The notes below the pieces were generated by a model. It did not search any database, was not told the origin of the DNA, and was given only the letters and a program-made list of their open reading frames with translations. A program made the position numbers and the translations under genes. Positions 3,918 through 55,219 of a stretch of DNA of 64,000 bases are shown here, piece by piece. Numbering within the stretch: position 1 is the stretch's first letter; every line of letters begins with the position of its first letter. The stretch is from Owenia fusiformis (taxonomy: Eukaryota): positions 16,058,001 through 16,122,000 of the forward strand of contig CAIIXF020000001.1 in the NCBI GenBank assembly GCA_903813345.2. Reading direction: 5' to 3'.

Positions 3918-3947
3918 CTGCAAATAAAGTAAAAGAAAAAATAAAGG

Positions 3948-4687
3948 TGTAGAATAGTATAAACTAGTAATTTGGTATGTTTTCAGTAAGAACTCCTCCC
4001 CCGTCAAGTTAGAGAAGTAAGTAGAGACTCAAGTCAAGACTCAAGTCAAGATAAAGACACAGTCAAGTCAAAGTCAAGGCACAGAACAATTAAAAGTCAA
4101 GGCACAGAACAATTTGCAAGCCAAAGTCAAGGCACAGAACAATTGTACCTTCACGATTAGAAGGCAAAGGCACAGAAGTTCTTAGAGATATAGAATCAGC
4201 GTATATGTTCATTAGTGATTAAAGTGAGATAGATACTTTGTGTTCTTAGTTGATTAACAATTAAAGTGAGAAAGAGACTCATTGAAGAAGTGGTGAAGTT
4301 ATTATAATTAAAGTGAGATAGAGTTTAAGATAGTTAAGGTTATTAAGATAGATTTGTGTATGTTTGATTGACCAGTCAGGTAGACACAATGTCATTGTTA
4401 GGTACAATATCAGCAATAGCAAGGGAATTCCATGATTCAAGAAGGGTGAGTTAGATAAGTGGAAAATATTGAAGAAGCAAATTAAGAGAAGATCATATTG
4501 GGAGCAAAGACGCTTGGGACTACGAAAGAGTAAATACAGAATTAAGAAGAAGTGTATATTCATAATTAAGGAAGTTGAGTACAAACCAAATTAGAACATT
4601 TGAAGTGATAGTACATTACATGAGGTAGCTTCTGGTCAACACCCCAGGCGAGAACAGAGTCAGTAGGTAAGATAACACTCTTTTATA
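3948..4687 (+). repeat. 5' LTR of the Gypsy element
   Basis: Starts TGTAGAATAGT and ends ACTCTTTTATA. Contains tandem AAGTCAAGGCACAGAACAATT units and repeated ATTAAAGTGAGA. Duplicated at 9964-10703. Confidence 0.95.
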
Positions 4688-4688
4688 T

Positions 4689-4697
4689 TGGTGGCAG
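4689..4697 (+). promoter_or_regulatory. Primer binding site, tRNA-Leu-like
   Basis: TGGTGGCAG lies 1 nt after the LTR and is complementary to the CUGCCACCA 3' end of tRNA-Leu (recalled). The match appears to stop after about 9 nt. Confidence 0.7.
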
Positions 4698-4699
4698 TA

Positions 4700-7600
4700 A
4701 TGGCAGACGCAAACGCGCCTCACGAGGGGAATGAAGCAGACCCAGTACAGCCTCAAGGGGGTCAACAGGGGAATCCAGGTCGGGAATATAGGAAAGCAGT
4801 TACCCCTAGGGCATTTGATGCAGGTTCAGCATCCTGGGATACATGGTTGAAGCATTTTGATAGAGTTTCTGCGGCGAATAACTGGCCTGATGCTACTAAG
4901 GTGATCATGCTTGGAACAGTAATTTCCGGGAAGGTGTTGGAGGAATACGAACGGCTATTAGATGAGATGGAAGATATGTCATATGCTGACCTAGCCAAGG
5001 CAATTGGGAAGGAGATTAAGCCCACGAGGAAGATTGCAATGGACAAGTACCTGGCAATGGTTATTGGTACCGACTCTCCAAAAGCATTTTTCTCTAAACT
5101 TTGGGACCAGTCAAAGCTCGTATATCCTGCGGATGAAGTTGGTAATGCAGCAAGACTGATATTAGTGAAAACACAATTCTTACAGGCTTTACCCTCCAAT
5201 CTAGTGGAAGATGTGGCCAAACAGACGGATATCCAGGCACTGGCCAAAGATGAACTACTAACAGCAGTTACTAGGGTATGGGAAGCTACGCGGCAGAGTA
5301 AAACTACCACAGATAAAGCAGTAGTAGGGGCAGTAGGGGGTGTATCGGAAGACAGAATGACTAAACTGGAATCGGAAATTCAAGAACTGAAACAGTTGAT
5401 GGTTACGTCAATGTCTATTAAGGGTGAAGGTAGAAATAATCATGTAGAACCCCAACAGTCATCGCAGCAATCACAGCCGAGGCGATGTTATAATTGTGAT
5501 AAGCCAGGCCATATAGCAAAGGATTGTTGGTCACGGAAGGAGATGCAGCCCAGGAGACCATTGCGGTGCTTTAATTGTTCTGGGACTGGACATATGGCAA
5601 GGGATTGTCCCTCGCCCAAGCAAAGCAAATCAGTTGGGAATACTTCTCAACAGAGTGATTCTACAGAGGCTGATGGAAGTAAGTCTCAGAAGATAGCAGC
5701 AATAGATGCCCCATCTCCATCAGCCTTGCTTATACGGGTTGGTATTGGTACTTGTCAGCCAGACCAATGGATGATGTGGATGATTGATACAGGGGCTAAG
5801 ATATCGGTTGTTGATCATGTCACGTACAAAATGCAACTTGCGGATTATGCACTTGATACAACTGGATCTTCAATTGATTGTGTATCTGCAGATGGTTCTG
5901 GTATCAGTGTGCTGGGGAAGGTGTCTATTACTTTGTGGTTTGGTGAGAGAAAGCTTACTCAACCCATATATGTGATTCAGGGTGCGACTAGAACAGCTCT
6001 ACTAGGTCAGGACGTCCTCAGTCAGTTTTCATGTTGGAGTGTCAAGAAGAAAGAAAGAGTCATAGTTTTGGATGAAGAGAGGATGGACCTATGTGAAGCC
6101 CCCAGTTCGCTGAACAAAGTGTGCAATGTTTCATTGGCTGCGGATGTTATTGTTCCTGGAGAAAGTATGTCTTGGGTAGAAGCCAAACTGCCAGAGCGCA
6201 TTCACGGTGTTTCAGGAATATTTACTCCAGATGATCATCTTTCAAGAAAGAAGCACATATTAGCAGCAAAAGGTCTTTGCAGGACAGATGCCCTCAAATG
6301 CTCAGTGCAAGTGAAAGTGATGAATCCAGAATCTACACCCAGGCCACTGTATAAAGGAACTAAAATGGGAATATTTTCACCTGCTGCATTGCAGGACTAT
6401 GAAAAGGTTTATGATCCATTTGGGGAGGAGTTACAGGGTAGCAATACCTTGCCAATATGGAACACCATCCAACAAGTATCAGTGGAGCCTAATTTATTTA
6501 CTGAGGCCCGAGATTGCTGGAGGGGAGAAGTAAATCATCTCTCAAATGAGCAGGTGGAGGAACTCATGACAACTTTAGATGAGTATGAGGAAATATTTTC
6601 AAAAACTGAAGGAGATCTCGGGAACACATCTTTGATCAAGCATCGCATTGAATTAAAAAGTGATAAAGTGATTCATCGTCGACCATACCGTTATAGTCCA
6701 AAAGAAATGGAGATTATTGATGCTGAGGTGGAGAAGTTGCTAGATAATGGTGTAATACAGCCATCAGTTTCACCATATTCGTCACCAGTATTGCTTGTAC
6801 CAAAGAAAGGGGGTAAATGGAGATTTTGCCATGATAGTCGATTTTTGAATGATGAAACAGTAGACCAGCATTACCCCATACCATTGATTCAGGATGCCAT
6901 AGATGGTCTTGCTGATGCTATGTACTTTACAACGCTCGACGCCACAAGTGGGTATCACCAGGTGACTTTAGATGAAAAGAGTAGGCAGTATACAGCATTT
7001 TCTACACGAACTGGGCATTGGGAATTTGTGCGAATGCCTTTTGGACTCAAGGGAGCTCCTCACACATTTCAGAGGTTGATGGGGCTAGTAATGAAGGGCC
7101 TGACACATACAGAGGTGCTGGTTTACATGGATGACGTGGTTGTCTTCTCTAAGACATTTGAGGGTCATATCAGAGCCCTGCGTAAAGTTTTTGAGAGACT
7201 TAGACAACACAACATTCGCCTAAACCCTAAGAAATGTAAATTCTGTCAAGAATCTGTATTGTATTTGGGTTATTTGGTAGACAACAAAGGAGTTCGACCC
7301 AATCCAGAAGCAGTGAGAGTTATCAATGAGTTACCAGTGCCTACAACAGTTGCTCAAGTTCAAAGGTTCCTTGGAAAAGTGAACTACTATAGAAGGTTCA
7401 TAAAGGACATGGCCTCAATAGCAAAACCCCTATATGATGCTGTCAAGACTGGGAAGGAACATAGAAAAAGGGACATATCCTTGTCTGTTGCTCAAATTAC
7501 GGCATTTCAAAGTTTGAAGGACATTCTGATCTCCTATGATGTCATGGCATATCCAAGATTTGATAGACCTTTTATTGTTGACACTGACGCATCTTCTCAT

Positions 7601-9856
7601 GCACTGGGAGCAAGTATTTCCCAAAAGGATGATAGTGGTCAGGAAAGACCAGTGCATCATGCATCGACAACACTAAGCAAAGAACAAAAAAACTATTCAA
7701 CAACTGAGAGAGAGTGCCTTGCGTTAGTGTTTGCAGTCCAACAATTTAGACAGTATCTTCATGGTACAAAATTTGTATTTAGAACGGATCATAATCCATT
7801 GACTTGGCTAAGAAAAGTGAAGGAACCAAAGGGTCGATGGGCCAGATGGCTCATGCTTTTGGAAGAGTTCCCTTATGAGATTCAGTACAGAAAAGGTACG
7901 CAGCATGACAATGCAGATTTTTTGTCAAGACTAGAAGACCAGAAGGATCTCTCTGCTCCTACCAAGTCAAGAGGTACTCAGACAGGAAATACAGAAAATG
8001 TAGCTCCAGACACACAGCTTCAGAAGGTAGAAGTGAAGATACCAGACATTTCCTGTACACATCCTACATTGGTGACTAAGGAGGTCATACCTGGATGCAA
8101 CATAGACAGCAGACCTAGTGAAGTGGCAACAGATAAGAATGTAGAGGAGAAGAAGAATATGAGTGTGGAACAGGAAGTTAATCCCAACAATGAAAGGATA
8201 CAAGAATTTCAGTCCATGTTGAATTCAACAGTTCTCAAGCAAGATCAAAGAAATGATGCAGTCATTGGCCCAGTAATTAAGTGTCTTGATGGGGAGGAGC
8301 CTGAGTCTTCATTAGAGAAGAGTGACCGACAAGTGAAATGGCTTTATGGACAAAGGAAGTTATTGGAAATAATAAATGGGATATTGTACAGGAAGATATC
8401 AAGAAAGGAAGGACTTAAACCCATCCTGCAAATAGTTCTACCTTTATGTTGGAGGGAACTTGTTCTGGAAGAATTACATGACAGCGTGATGTCTGGGCAT
8501 TTGGGAACAGAGAGAACAGCAGAGAGAGTTCGTCTGAGGTTTTACTGGTGTGGTTATCTGAAGGATGTTGAAACGTGGTGTAAGAGTTGTGTGGAGTGCC
8601 AAAAGAGGCACATGCCTCAAGCTAAAATGAAAGCGCCGTTAACAAACATCCCAGTGGAGGGACGTCCTTTCGAAGAGATCGCTTTAGATTTTGTTGAGCT
8701 TGAACCCACTCCGAGGGGAAACCGTTATGCTATGGTAGTTCAGGATTATTTCACGAAATGGGTGGAGGGTTATCCAATGAAAGATATAAAGACAGAACGA
8801 GCAGCCTCTATTTTGGTGCGTGAATGGCTCAGCAGATTTGGATGTCCAGTTTCAATAAACTCAGACCAGGGGACGCAGTTCGAATCTAAACTCTTTAAGG
8901 AACTATGTCGTATCATTGAGTGTAAGAAGAGGCGCACTTCGGCATACCATCCAAGAACAGATGGGATGGTTGAGAGGGCAAACAGGAGCTTGATCAGCAT
9001 TCTATCAAAATATGCGGTGGAAGAAAGAGACTGGGACTTGAAATTACCGTTGGCGCTATTTGCCTACAGGACAAGTGTCCATACTTCAACAGGATTTTCT
9101 CCATTTATGCTGGCTTTCGGGAGGGAAGCCCATGTACCTTTGGATTGGATTGTAGGAGAGAGTTTCCCATGTGAAAAAATGTCCACACAGAAGTGGGTAA
9201 ACACCTTTCAACAGGACATGAGGAAAGTCTACAAATCAGTACAACAGAACATTGGAACTGCACAGCATAGACAAAAGGTGAATTATGACAAGGATGTGAA
9301 AGGAAAGTATATACAATACAAAGCAGGAGACAAGATAATGCTATATGACCCCACAGCCAGAGGTAAAGAAGGTAAACTTCATAATCCTTGGATTGGGCCA
9401 TGTGTCATAAGAGATAGGACAAGCCCAGTCACTTTCCGAGTCAAGCTACCTGGTGGACGACTGATCCATGTGAATTATGACCGGCTTAAGAAATTTGTTG
9501 ACAGAAGACTGTGCCAGGGCAACAAACAAAATGTTCCTACAGAAGATCAGAATGTACCAGATGTTTTGTCAAGTCAAGAACCAGTAGAAGGGGATAATGA
9601 CGAAGTAGACAGTGAGTGGGATGAAGAGTCACAAAATCATCATTTGATAGGTAATGGTGACCGAGAGATATCAGACTCTGAGTCTGGTTCATCCATGGGA
9701 GATGAACCATCAGATATCTCAGCTCCAGAGGATGACTTCAGCTGGGAACCAGATGAGCTACCTTATAATGACCATGGGTACAGTGAGAAGTTTCCTAGGC
9801 ATTATTGTGATGTAGATCCTTCAAACATACTTCCCAGAGGATCACGTCGGAAGTAG
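4700..9856 (+). CDS. Gag-Pol polyprotein (capsid, two CCHC knuckles, aspartic protease, RT, RNase H, integrase)
   Basis: Uninterrupted ORF with first ATG at 4700. Motifs: [14 protein letters not shown] and [14 protein letters not shown]; protease [21 protein letters not shown] and YMDD; RNase H DTDAS and ERECLA; integrase HHCC zinc finger and DDE core (LDFV, SDQG, ERAN). Confidence 0.97.
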
Positions 9857-9950
9857 AAACCTATAATGTATTAGACAAAATGTGTTATAGTTAGATTTCC
9901 ATTATAGTTAAAGTTACCTAGTATAAAGTTAAAGTATTAAGTTTAGATCT

Positions 9951-9963
9951 AGGGAGGGAGGAG
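9951..9963 (+). promoter_or_regulatory. Polypurine tract
   Basis: AGGGAGGGAGGAG directly abuts the 3' LTR. Confidence 0.9.
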
Positions 9964-10703
9964 TGTAGAATAGTATAAACTAGTAATTTGGTATGTTTTC
10001 AGTAAGAACTCCTCCCCCGTCAAGTTAGAGAAGTAAGTAGAGACTCAAGTCAAGACTCAAGTCAAGATAAAGACACAGTCAAGTCAAAGTCAAGGCACAG
10101 AACAATTAAAAGTCAAGGCACAGAACAATTTGCAAGCCAAAGTCAAGGCACAGAACAATTGTACCTTCACGATTAGAAGGCAAAGGCACAGAAGTTCTTA
10201 GAGATATAGAATCAGCGTATATGTTCATTAGTGATTAAAGTGAGATAGATACTTTGTGTTCTTAGTTGATTAACAATTAAAGTGAGAAAGAGACTCATTG
10301 AAGAAGTGGTGAAGTTATTATAATTAAAGTGAGATAGAGTTTAAGATAGTTAAGGTTATTAAGATAGATTTGTGTATGTTTGATTGACCAGTCAGGTAGA
10401 CACAATGTCATTGTTAGGTACAATATCAGCAATAGCAAGGGAATTCCATGATTCAAGAAGGGTGAGTTAGATAAGTGGAAAATATTGAAGAAGCAAATTA
10501 AGAGAAGATCATATTGGGAGCAAAGACGCTTGGGACTACGAAAGAGTAAATACAGAATTAAGAAGAAGTGTATATTCATAATTAAGGAAGTTGAGTACAA
10601 ACCAAATTAGAACATTTGAAGTGATAGTACATTACATGAGGTAGCTTCTGGTCAACACCCCAGGCGAGAACAGAGTCAGTAGGTAAGATAACACTCTTTT
10701 ATA
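9964..10703 (+). repeat. 3' LTR of the Gypsy element
   Basis: Copy of 3948-4687 at an offset of 6016 bp. Confidence 0.95.
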
Positions 10704-10839
10704 AAGGTACAGCTAAGAGTACAGTTACAATAAGATGTACAGATACAGTTACAATTACAGGTCCCTCAGGTAGATATGCATATCTCCCTCTGGATAAACC
10801 CCATATCCAAAACTTCCCAGTACATAACCCTTATGTATT

Positions 10840-52786: not shown

Positions 52787-54661
52787 TTGATTAATCAATG
52801 GTACATATTATGAAATGTCAATGGAATTGTTCAAATAATTAATTTCCAATGTTCTAGTGACAGTTCTCAAATACAAATAAAAAGGGTTTTATAATATCAA
52901 CTATAAAGCAAAAGGCACATGCTAAACCATGTGATGATGGTTTCCAGTGACAATAATATATAAATTTTGACATGTCCTGAATTTCACCGTTTAACCCCTT
53001 GGATAACATGTTTCATTTTTTGCCATTTTACTTTCTTAATAAAACAATCTTTTATCATCATTTGATAGTGATAACATATCAATTATACACATTTTAATAT
53101 ATGACTAATGTAATTATTCAAAAGAGCCATCCTAATGAGAAATTATGTGAGAGATACTATATATCCATTACTTTCTGTATTCAAGAGGTTAGAGGATTTT
53201 CTGCACAATATCAATCATTTCTTGAGATTCTTACTCTGCTTTTGTTACTTATCTACGCATCGTGACCCTGTCAAATTCTATTTTGATATCATCAAGAAAT
53301 AAAATAACGAGCCATTTGATAGAGTTGTGATATTTTATCACAGAAATACTATTATATATAATTATCTTTACTCTATATGCTCATAGTACTATAACCACAT
53401 CTAATAGATAAAGTTACAGAAGACATTTTCATTAAAATACAAATTCAATATTTATACATATGTTTACATTTTTGGCCAATAAAGAGATTGAATATATGGT
53501 TTTGAATTACTCACACATTTAATTTTTGCATAGACTATGAATAATTTAAGGAGTACATGAATATTAGGTATATAATATACACTACTCCATCATTGTATTA
53601 CCCTGGTAATATTATCCTGGCAATTACAATAAAATGTTGAACTAAACAATGCTGAAATTGATATAGCTAGCTTACAGACCCAAATAAAAAAATCGGACTC
53701 ATCTAACTAAACTAAATTGCATAATTTTCGGACACCTTTAATAGTAATATATAAAACACATGGTCTGAGTTAAGACATTACTCATGTCAGTTTGAGAGGT
53801 CAAGGTCACATTTATAGATCAAGGTCAACTAGAAGATAATGTATCAGTATTTCAAATGAAATAACAAAATGTAGTGATCTATATATTGCATAATATATAG
53901 ATCATATATGAACAATATGGAATCCAATGTGATTTTTAATGGGAATATAATTGAAAACCCCTTGAAGAATTTAACAATACATAGTAAATAATAAATTACA
54001 TGCCCAACTGATTTGATATGAATAGATTGTATATACTCACACACAGTCATTATCAGATCAATTTTTAATATTGTTATTCTTAAATAATTTTCTAAATCTG
54101 AATGCCCAACACAAAAGAGATTATTTGGATTAGGAAAAGATGTGGAAGTTTAGCACTTGAAAAGTCCATTCAAGATCATTTTCAAAAATTATCCTCTTAG
54201 CGTGTAAACTGAAATTAGCTCTGCCAAAATATTACAATATTTTAATGAAAAAACAAACAAATGTAATACGTTAAAAAATATAAAAGTATAAAAAAACAAT
54301 AATGGTAAAACAATGTACAACTTTGAATAGTATATTGAACACAGTAAATTGTTCAAGATTTTTCCATTGATATTGATGTAAGAAATCTTAAGGATTTTTA
54401 TTATATAGTTAATCTGATTTATTCGAACCTCTTATGTTCCTTCACAACCAACATACATAACCTACATGGAAAGCTAGTAACAACACATTCACACAAACAA
54501 AATAATTCAGAGAGACAATAAATGAGAGATAGCCTAATTTGAGTGTCCAGAATTGCCATGTACATAGCGGTTAACAAGTAACGAAGTTAGAAAAACTTGA
54601 CAACTCAATGAACTTGTAATCCACTGAACATTGTTGTACAACAACCAAAAGAACAAATAAT

Positions 54662-55219
54662 ATGGCATCTAAAAACAACATGGATAAAGTTGTCGGCCAG
54701 ACAAATAAATTGATGGCAGCGGATAAACAGGGCAATCAGAAAAGTCGAAGAAAAAGCCAACTGCCTCCTGGGACAACCTCAGGTGTCCCTGCGAGTAAAA
54801 ATGTAGCTCCGAGTACAAGATCCTCCGTCTCGGAGGTGCCGACCCACAGACAGATGGTAACACTGGAGAATTCGTATAAAATGAAGCCAGCTCCTGAAGA
54901 AACATTTTCATCTTGCAAAGTGGAAAAAATGATGGCTGATGTGTTGGAAACACATTTAAAGAAGACGGAATACAACAAGGACACATGCACTAAACTAACG
55001 CAAGAACTAACTTCCATCATCAAAACAAGAGTGAAAGAGATGGGTTATAATCGTTATAAACTTGTATGTAGTATCACCATTGGAGAAGTTGGAGGCCAAA
55101 GTGCATCCATGGCTAGTAGGTGTGTCTGGGATGATACAGTAGACAATTCGGCTTGTTCAAGCTTCAAAAATGACTCATTATATGCCGTTGCTTTAGTATT
55201 TGCAATGTTTTGTGAATAA
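54662..55219 (+). CDS. TCTEX1D1: Tctex1 domain-containing dynein light chain (TCTEX1D1/DYNLT5-like), intronless CDS
   Basis: 185-aa ORF with LENSYKMKP, RYKLVCSITIGE, SRCVWDDTVDN and SFKNDSLYAVALVFA, typical of the Tctex-1 family. AATAAA at 55291 and 55446. The paralogue assignment is tentative. Confidence 0.9.
   Translation: MASKNNMDKVVGQTNKLMAADKQGNQKSRRKSQLPPGTTSGVPASKNVAPSTRSSVSEVPTHRQMVTLENSYKMKPAPEETFSSCKVEKMMADVLETHLKKTEYNKDTCTKLTQELTSIIKTRVKEMGYNRYKLVCSITIGEVGGQSASMASRCVWDDTVDNSACSSFKNDSLYAVALVFAMFCE

Follow-up and report, generated by a model that had tools for sequence, protein, structure and literature searches.

Which module couples a Gypsy-type integrase to chromatin when its polyprotein carries no chromodomain? 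To our knowledge, the integrase tethers described for long terminal repeat (LTR) retrotransposons are of two kinds: the chromodomain, a folded reader of histone tails, and segments that bind adaptors other than histones. The question is raised by an intact Ty3/Gypsy LTR retrotransposon from Owenia fusiformis, located at positions 3948–10703 of the analysed stretch of 64,000 nucleotides (contig CAIIXF020000001.1, positions 16,058,001 to 16,122,000 of the forward strand; hereafter the window), where it is the sole copy. The integrase of this element ends in a long acidic tail closed by a short conserved block, which on balance is predicted to be a linear motif of the CHZ type, i.e. the H2A–H2B-binding motif of the histone chaperones Chz1 and HIRIP3. 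The original prediction for this locus had proposed such chaperone mimicry by the integrase tail; at the level of sequence comparison, this interpretation is partly supported.

Acidic tail of the integrase

The gag-pol product and the parts of its integrase were assigned as follows (+ strand throughout):

4700–9856, +: gag-pol open reading frame (ORF), single and uninterrupted, ATG at 4700, stop at 9854–9856, 1718 residues
8447–8953, +: integrase zinc-binding domain (residues 1250–1304; PF17921, E-value 4.6e-18) and catalytic core (residues 1323–1418; PF00665, 3.6e-11)
9332–9520, +: SH3-like C-terminal domain of the integrase (signature PW.GP, of the GPY/F type; last residues ...NYDRLKKF)
9497–9805, +: acidic linker, predicted disordered (residues 1600–1702)
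9806–9853, +: CHZ-like terminal motif (residues 1703–1718, 16 residues), then the stop at 9854–9856

Pfam analysis of the polyprotein gave the order gag with two zf-CCHC, aspartyl protease (weak), RVT_1, RT_RNaseH, Integrase_H2C2 and rve, followed by weak SH3_Tf2-1 and Integrase_p58_C matches at residues 1553–1598. The chromodomain (PF00385), which characterizes chromoviruses, was not found in the 1718 residues at E ≤ 10, and the absence of this domain claimed for the element was thereby confirmed with Pfam. Nor was a chromodomain present in the precomputed Pfam lists of the closest relatives (numbered P0003–P0030), while Chromo does occur in more distant ones. The claim that an acidic disordered tail with a CHZ-like end follows the integrase C-terminal domain also held: the letters quoted for it match positions 9545–9853 exactly, and the linker is 103 residues long.

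This linker, which separates the ...DRLKKF of the C-terminal domain from the motif, contains 28% D+E and 6% K+R, with a net charge of −23. All linkers of the relatives are acidic as well (61–104 residues, 19–34% D+E, net charge −9 to −26). Residues 1520–1718 were modelled with AlphaFold2 using an alignment of 26 relatives as input. The SH3-like domain was obtained with a predicted local distance difference test (pLDDT) score of 75–97, its barrel strands reaching 90–97. The acidic tail showed values of 46–54 and no secondary structure, and the last 20 residues reached 64–65 with a single helical turn at P-S-N. Foldseek matches of the barrel were to the prototype foamy virus (PFV) integrase (root-mean-square deviation 1.7–1.9 over about 60 residues), to the Ty3 integrase (7q5b) and to Tudor/PWWP barrels, all of them weak (best E-value 5.5e-3).

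Conservation of the terminal motif

Using residues 1400–1718 as query, 90 proteins were retrieved, from which the 28 closest are 34–49% identical to the query. A terminal block lies 14–22 residues from the C-terminal end in 25 of these 28. The exceptions are P0008, which stops inside the block, and P0017 and P0021, the ends of which are truncated or divergent. The block was found in none of the remaining 62 proteins of the 90. A profile of 26 tails (A2) was further searched against 5.8 billion proteins, with scoring limited to the 7999 candidates sharing most words. It retrieved 36 proteins, 35 of which belong to the group of this clade (integrase-bearing proteins or short fragments), and 21 of the 22 newly found ones carry the motif at their very end.

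The consensus of the motif is C-[DN]-[VIL]-[DN]-P-x-N-[IV]-[IVL]-x-x-G-x-R-R, followed by the stop. In the relatives it forms part of a longer terminal block, P-L-M-G-x-R-G-x-x-W-C-N-x-D-P-x-N-I-x-x-G-x-R-R-R, which in the window element is recognisable only from [YW]-C onward. An alignment of the tails, begun 40 residues before the end of the C-terminal domain and running through the stop, gave three conserved blocks only: the C-terminal domain, an acidic-serine cluster and the terminal block. The linkers were otherwise unalignable. Within the motif, conservation is highest for an invariant N, followed by the N/D, P and I columns, and substitutions are conservative (V/I/L, D/N, R/K, W/Y) although the tails are 24–38% identical and the pol regions at most about 50%. 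Conservation of the motif between diverging flanks had been set as a test in the original prediction, and this is the pattern observed. Comparison at the protein level indicates purifying selection on the terminal motif throughout a deep clade.

The acidic-serine cluster, the sole linker block that could be aligned across the relatives, is of the type D-S-x-x-E-E (DSEWDEE in the window) and is located at 9581–9607 (residues ~1628–1636), about 20–35 residues past the C-terminal domain. We take it to resemble sites of the casein kinase 2 (CK2) type. HIRIP3 is reported to associate with CK2 in PMC10854748. Another H2A–H2B-binding motif, DEF/Y, is described in PMC6544321 as an acidic run followed by an aromatic residue. 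It was considered for the tail, as the window contains EDDF, and rejected because no enrichment over shuffled linkers was obtained: the pattern [DE]{2,}[FYW] occurs in 5 of 29 tails versus about 5.5 from linker shuffles, and the window's own chance of carrying it is 0.43.

Phylogenetic distribution of the motif

Trees were calculated from pol sequences lacking their last 125 residues, using FastTree (61 rows) and the quick mode of IQ-TREE (42 rows). In both, the window element and 29 relatives form one clade with a support of 100. The window element is the earliest branch, sister to all other members, with path lengths of 1.4–2.3 changes per site; the motif therefore predates this split. Its distribution on the tree corresponds to one gain and three losses (P0008, P0017 and P0021). 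Two further proteins, P0093 and P0109, carry the motif yet were placed by FastTree on very long branches outside the clade; they were excluded from the IQ-TREE run.

In the best 150 representatives (at 50% identity) for the integrase C-terminal part and tail, many of which are fragments, the motif was detected in four (P0003, P0103, P0112 and P0154). The other 11 profile matches among these 150 scored at most 0.7 bits. The motif being present in only four of them, it is the mark of a single clade, within which it is old.

Similarity to the CHZ family

The Pfam CHZ family (PF09649) has a profile length of 34 positions and a gathering score of 23.3 bits. With the last 40 residues of the window's polyprotein, CHZ was the sole family matched (E-value 0.15, 11.9 bits, profile positions 9–22). 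The same was true for the last 40 residues of 16 of the 28 relatives, hence 17 of 29 tails with the window included. One tail, P0019, exceeded the gathering score (25.3 bits, E-value 1e-5); the 15 other matching relatives remained below it with 10.8–21.3 bits (P0026 21.3, P0012 21.2, P0029 19.3, the others 18.5 and lower). As a control, the C-termini of 40 retroelement polyproteins outside the clade were analysed. None of them matched CHZ, the arginine-rich ones included, and five matched Chromo.

For the reverse search, 177,635 distinct PDB sequences were compared with the 26-tail profile. Only two matches were obtained, both of them yeast Chz1 (2jss_B, E-value 0.039; 6ae8_C, 0.15). The segment of Chz1 aligned with the tail profile is its CHZ motif, ...IDTSNIITSGRRTR. 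In the core of the alignment, ...NvDPrNIveggRrrr of the tail profile stands opposite ...EIDTSNIITSGRRTR of Chz1, and the core D-x-S-N-I-I-x-x-G-R-R-x-R was recovered.

From these two-way matches, similarity to CHZ is well supported for the tails of the clade at the family level. Judged by the same comparisons, the window's own motif is a divergent member, carried mainly by its position and phylogeny. The profile similarity that had been expected from CHZ mimicry was consequently obtained for the family, while the window's own score stayed under the threshold.

Several results weigh against the motif being a CHZ-type H2A–H2B-binding element. The window's 11.9 bits are below the gathering score of 23.3, and pieces of 60, 103, 136 and 1718 residues of the same protein gave no CHZ match in Pfam. 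Twelve of the 28 relatives' tails were without CHZ match, three of which lack the motif. A profile built without the window ranked the window's tail first among 2086 ORF pieces, though with an E-value of just 0.029. Furthermore, the CHZ matches do not extend over the full length: they span profile positions 9–11 to 19–25 of 34, past which the cellular motif goes on but the proteins stop. The core is preceded by G-x-x-W-C-N in the relatives and by HYC in the window, as opposed to an acidic run in Chz1. In the search of 5.8 billion proteins with the tail profile (7999 candidates scored), all matches were proteins of retroelements, and no cellular CHZ protein was found at E ≤ 10. Binding of H2A–H2B by the tail is a prediction from sequence, and a CHZ-type contact need not imply tethering to nucleosomes.

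Additional searches were made with the window's tail. Its last 60 residues gave no match at E ≤ 10 against the PDB using phmmer, and its last 40 residues no usable match in the ESM Atlas. A complex prediction of these 40 residues with H2A (residues 14–119) and H2B (residues 31–124) from a metagenome locus, run without supplied alignments or controls, reached scores of 0.05 and 0.07 versus a mark of 0.34, which speaks neither for nor against binding. The CHZ motif is described as bipolar, acidic and then basic (PMC3395605). When the tail was examined for this make-up, the linker was found to be strongly acidic, yet the 8–10 residues directly before the core are non-acidic.

Other explanations for the tail

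The terminal block could be a conserved linear motif with another role, either a nuclear localisation signal or importin-binding site, or a site at which some other host protein docks, its likeness to CHZ being convergent and functionally meaningless. We regard this as rather unlikely, though it has features in its favour: the end is a run of basic residues (G-x-R-R-R/K) of the sort seen in monopartite import signals, most CHZ scores fall under the Pfam cut-off, and neither the W-C-N triplet nor the upstream P-L-M-G-x-R-G block of the relatives has a counterpart in Chz1. However, the best-conserved columns (N, N/D, P, I) are non-basic and not needed by an import signal. It is also difficult to reconcile with CHZ being the sole Pfam family matched by the 17 tails and Chz1 the sole PDB protein, while arginine-rich control tails gave no CHZ match.

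An intramolecular regulator was considered next to it, in which the acidic linker folds onto the DNA-binding surfaces of the integrase and is latched by the basic tip, histones being uninvolved. All carriers have one architecture in common, in which a basic tip follows an acidic linker with a net charge of −9 to −26. This would suit such a device, as would the predicted disorder of the linker. The regulator is nevertheless improbable, as nothing specific speaks for it and it leaves the likeness to CHZ unexplained; moreover, it is compatible with histone binding as a release signal and hence not strictly exclusive. It is very improbable that the conservation stems from a signal in the nucleotide sequence close to the genomic RNA's 3′ end, or from chance among close copies, in place of a protein motif: the motif does lie about 100–150 nt upstream of the polypurine tract and the relatives were compared as proteins only, but conservative protein-level substitutions are seen across elements with such diverged tails and pol regions, and the adjoining linker is entirely unconserved.

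Predicted interaction with histone dimers

The reading as a CHZ-type motif is best described by comparison with cellular chaperones. According to PMC10854748, the CHZ motif of HIRIP3 (residues 484–507) is indispensable for H2A–H2B binding and, when modelled on 2JSS, lies on the αC helix of H2B and reaches α2 of H2A. The motif is presented in PMC6544321 as a common H2A/H2A.Z–H2B binding device of eukaryotes.

In this reading, the SH3-like C-terminal domain of the integrase is followed by a linker that is flexible and acidic, the end of which would be a short CHZ-type linear motif. Like the cellular CHZ, this motif would be placed on the H2B αC/H2A α2 surface of an H2A–H2B or H2A.Z–H2B dimer, its arginines contacting acidic histone residues, and the acidic linker may shield the basic DNA-binding surfaces of the dimer. 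The functional outcome would be a coupling of the integrase, or of the intasome, to H2A–H2B. Such coupling could serve nucleosome tethering at integration or, as an equal option, the handling of a free or loosened dimer, e.g. by co-import or local nucleosome opening. The data do not separate tethering from dimer handling, and insertion sites may be biased as a consequence.

The original prediction had named H2A.Z beside H2A. A preference for H2A.Z is not supported, as nothing favours it over H2A in the present results. The CHZ motif itself is reported not to determine the preference between the two (PMC10854748, PMC6544321), and the preference of yeast for H2A.Z is attributed to flanking elements (PMC6544321).

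A different motif in related integrases

A second type of C-terminal end was observed, at the corresponding position, in integrases outside the clade. They end in R-R-S-[TG]-R-x-[RK]-[RK]-P-P-x-R-[YFL], located 13–31 residues from the stop (P0031, P0035–P0038, P0046, P0048, P0188, P0203, P0220, P0243, P0246, P0254, P0272, P0287 and P0296). This end is present in none of the 29 clade members versus 15 of 209 others (6 of 62 other matches and 9 of 147 representatives), and is mutually exclusive with the CHZ-like motif. The best PDB match of the R-R-S-[TG]-R profile is the CENP-C-like motif peptide from chicken KNL2 on the nucleosome (7y7i_K), with a non-significant E-value of 0.57. In this alignment, the invariant R of the motif coincides with R527 of KNL2, and the aromatic residue at +8 corresponds to F535. 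R527 is described as the acidic-patch anchor in PMC10015371.

A broader scenario, which we put forward tentatively as a distinct possibility, is that a deep clade of animal Ty3/Gypsy elements acquired a CHZ motif by capture or convergence and would use it, with the acidic linker, to seize H2A–H2B, whether on the nucleosome or off it, in the course of integration. In the sister clades, a CENP-C/KNL2-like motif would take its place, the C-termini of the integrases being a site where short mimics of cellular nucleosome binders are swapped.

Other features of the element and the window

The element at 3948–10703 is young and intact. Its remaining features are:

3944–3947, +: left copy of the target-site duplication, AAGG (alternatively the 5-bp AAAGG from 3943, depending on the LTR boundary), with identical letters after the right LTR
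3948–4687, +: 5′ LTR, 740 bp, TGTAG...TTATA, 100% identical to 9964–10703
9952–9963, +: polypurine tract GGGAGGGAGGAG, immediately 5′ of the 3′ LTR
9964–10703, +: 3′ LTR, 740 bp
10704–10707, +: right copy of the target-site duplication, AAGG

All the features defining Ty3/Gypsy elements (Metaviridae) were found, namely two LTRs, the target-site duplication, the polypurine tract, the order gag, protease, reverse transcriptase, RNase H and integrase, and an integrase with H2C2 and DDE. The gag-pol frame is open from 4676 to 9856 on the + strand and thus opens within the 5′ LTR. The ATG of gag at 4700 is located just 13 nt past the 5′ LTR, within TTGGTGGCAGTAATGG (4688–4706), the expected location of the primer-binding site.

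Three raw-read runs of RNA gave 11, 2 and 14 reads on the element at an identity of at least 97%, on both strands and with none in 9167–9853, which is too sparse for inference. In one run of raw DNA reads (X20), all 25 reads matched the element only partly. In four of them, the part preceding 9938 (a position shortly upstream of the 3′ LTR) is a different sequence, and position 6808 was G and not A in 4 of 4 reads. The individual sequenced in this run may carry related copies or a variant rather than exactly this insertion.

An intronless ORF at 54620–55219 (+) codes for a dynein light chain of the Tctex-1 family (PF03645, E-value 1e-28). Its best named homologues are a gastropod protein with 44% identity and a hemichordate one with 40%, which places the window in an animal genome.

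Comparison with known systems

The element shares with Chz1 of yeast and HIRIP3 of mammals the core D-x-S/x-N-I-I/V-x-x-G-R-R-x-R, a disordered context with acidic sequence on the N-terminal side (in the element this is the linker, the 8–10 residues next to the core being non-acidic) and the profile matches in both directions. In these cellular proteins, binding of H2A–H2B or H2A.Z–H2B requires the motif (PMC10854748, PMC6544321). The element differs from them in that the motif is the extreme C-terminus of an integrase and breaks off near position 25 of the 34 in the profile, and in the aromatic-Cys-Asn/Asp triplet, not acidic residues, which precedes the core.

The chromodomain of chromoviruses is found at the corresponding place of the polyprotein and presumably serves a like purpose, the coupling of integrase to chromatin. 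It is a folded domain that reads methylated H3 tails, while the element has a linear motif of about 16 residues without a fold, the putative target of which is the surface of the H2A–H2B dimer. Integration directed by chromodomains is cited in 10.1101/2021.11.30.470311. Further examples are the integrase of Ty5 with its partner Sir4, a tether named in PMC12159745, and the integrase C-terminal tail of murine leukaemia virus (MLV), which interacts with bromodomain and extraterminal (BET) proteins (PMC4027182). Both use a short disordered integrase segment as tether, but bind non-histone adaptors, whereas the partner of the present tail would be a histone dimer, reached by mimicry of a histone chaperone.

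Short arginine-bearing viral peptides that dock on nucleosomal H2A–H2B are found in LANA of KSHV (Kaposi's sarcoma-associated herpesvirus), in IE1 of human cytomegalovirus (hCMV) and in the chromatin-binding sequence of foamy virus Gag. Their sequence motifs are different, and none of them lies within an integrase. Docking of foamy virus Gag on the H2A–H2B acidic patch is reported to shape integration sites (PMC9040877), and this review of viral acidic-patch peptides contains no mention of 'retrotransposon' or 'Chz1'. In 10.1101/2021.11.30.470311, which surveys the chromatin domains that transposable elements have captured, CHZ is absent from the main text. No report of a CHZ motif in mobile elements was found in the literature searched, where the papers on the 'CHZ motif' are not about mobile elements, and no publication was found on HIRIP3 together with LTR retrotransposons. 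Both chromatin modules at the C-terminus of integrases and the CHZ motif are known; no combination of the two was found in the literature searched.

If the predicted interaction is true, the range of the CHZ motif, hitherto reported from cellular chaperones, would extend to mobile elements. The element would have a direct tether at the level of the histone dimer, in the form of a 16-residue motif which is small enough for peptide tests. If the likeness of the other integrase ends to KNL2 holds too, the C-termini of this group would carry interchangeable mimics of nucleosome-binding motifs. For the whole clade, the terminal motif would be a sequence marker from which insertion behaviour could be predicted.

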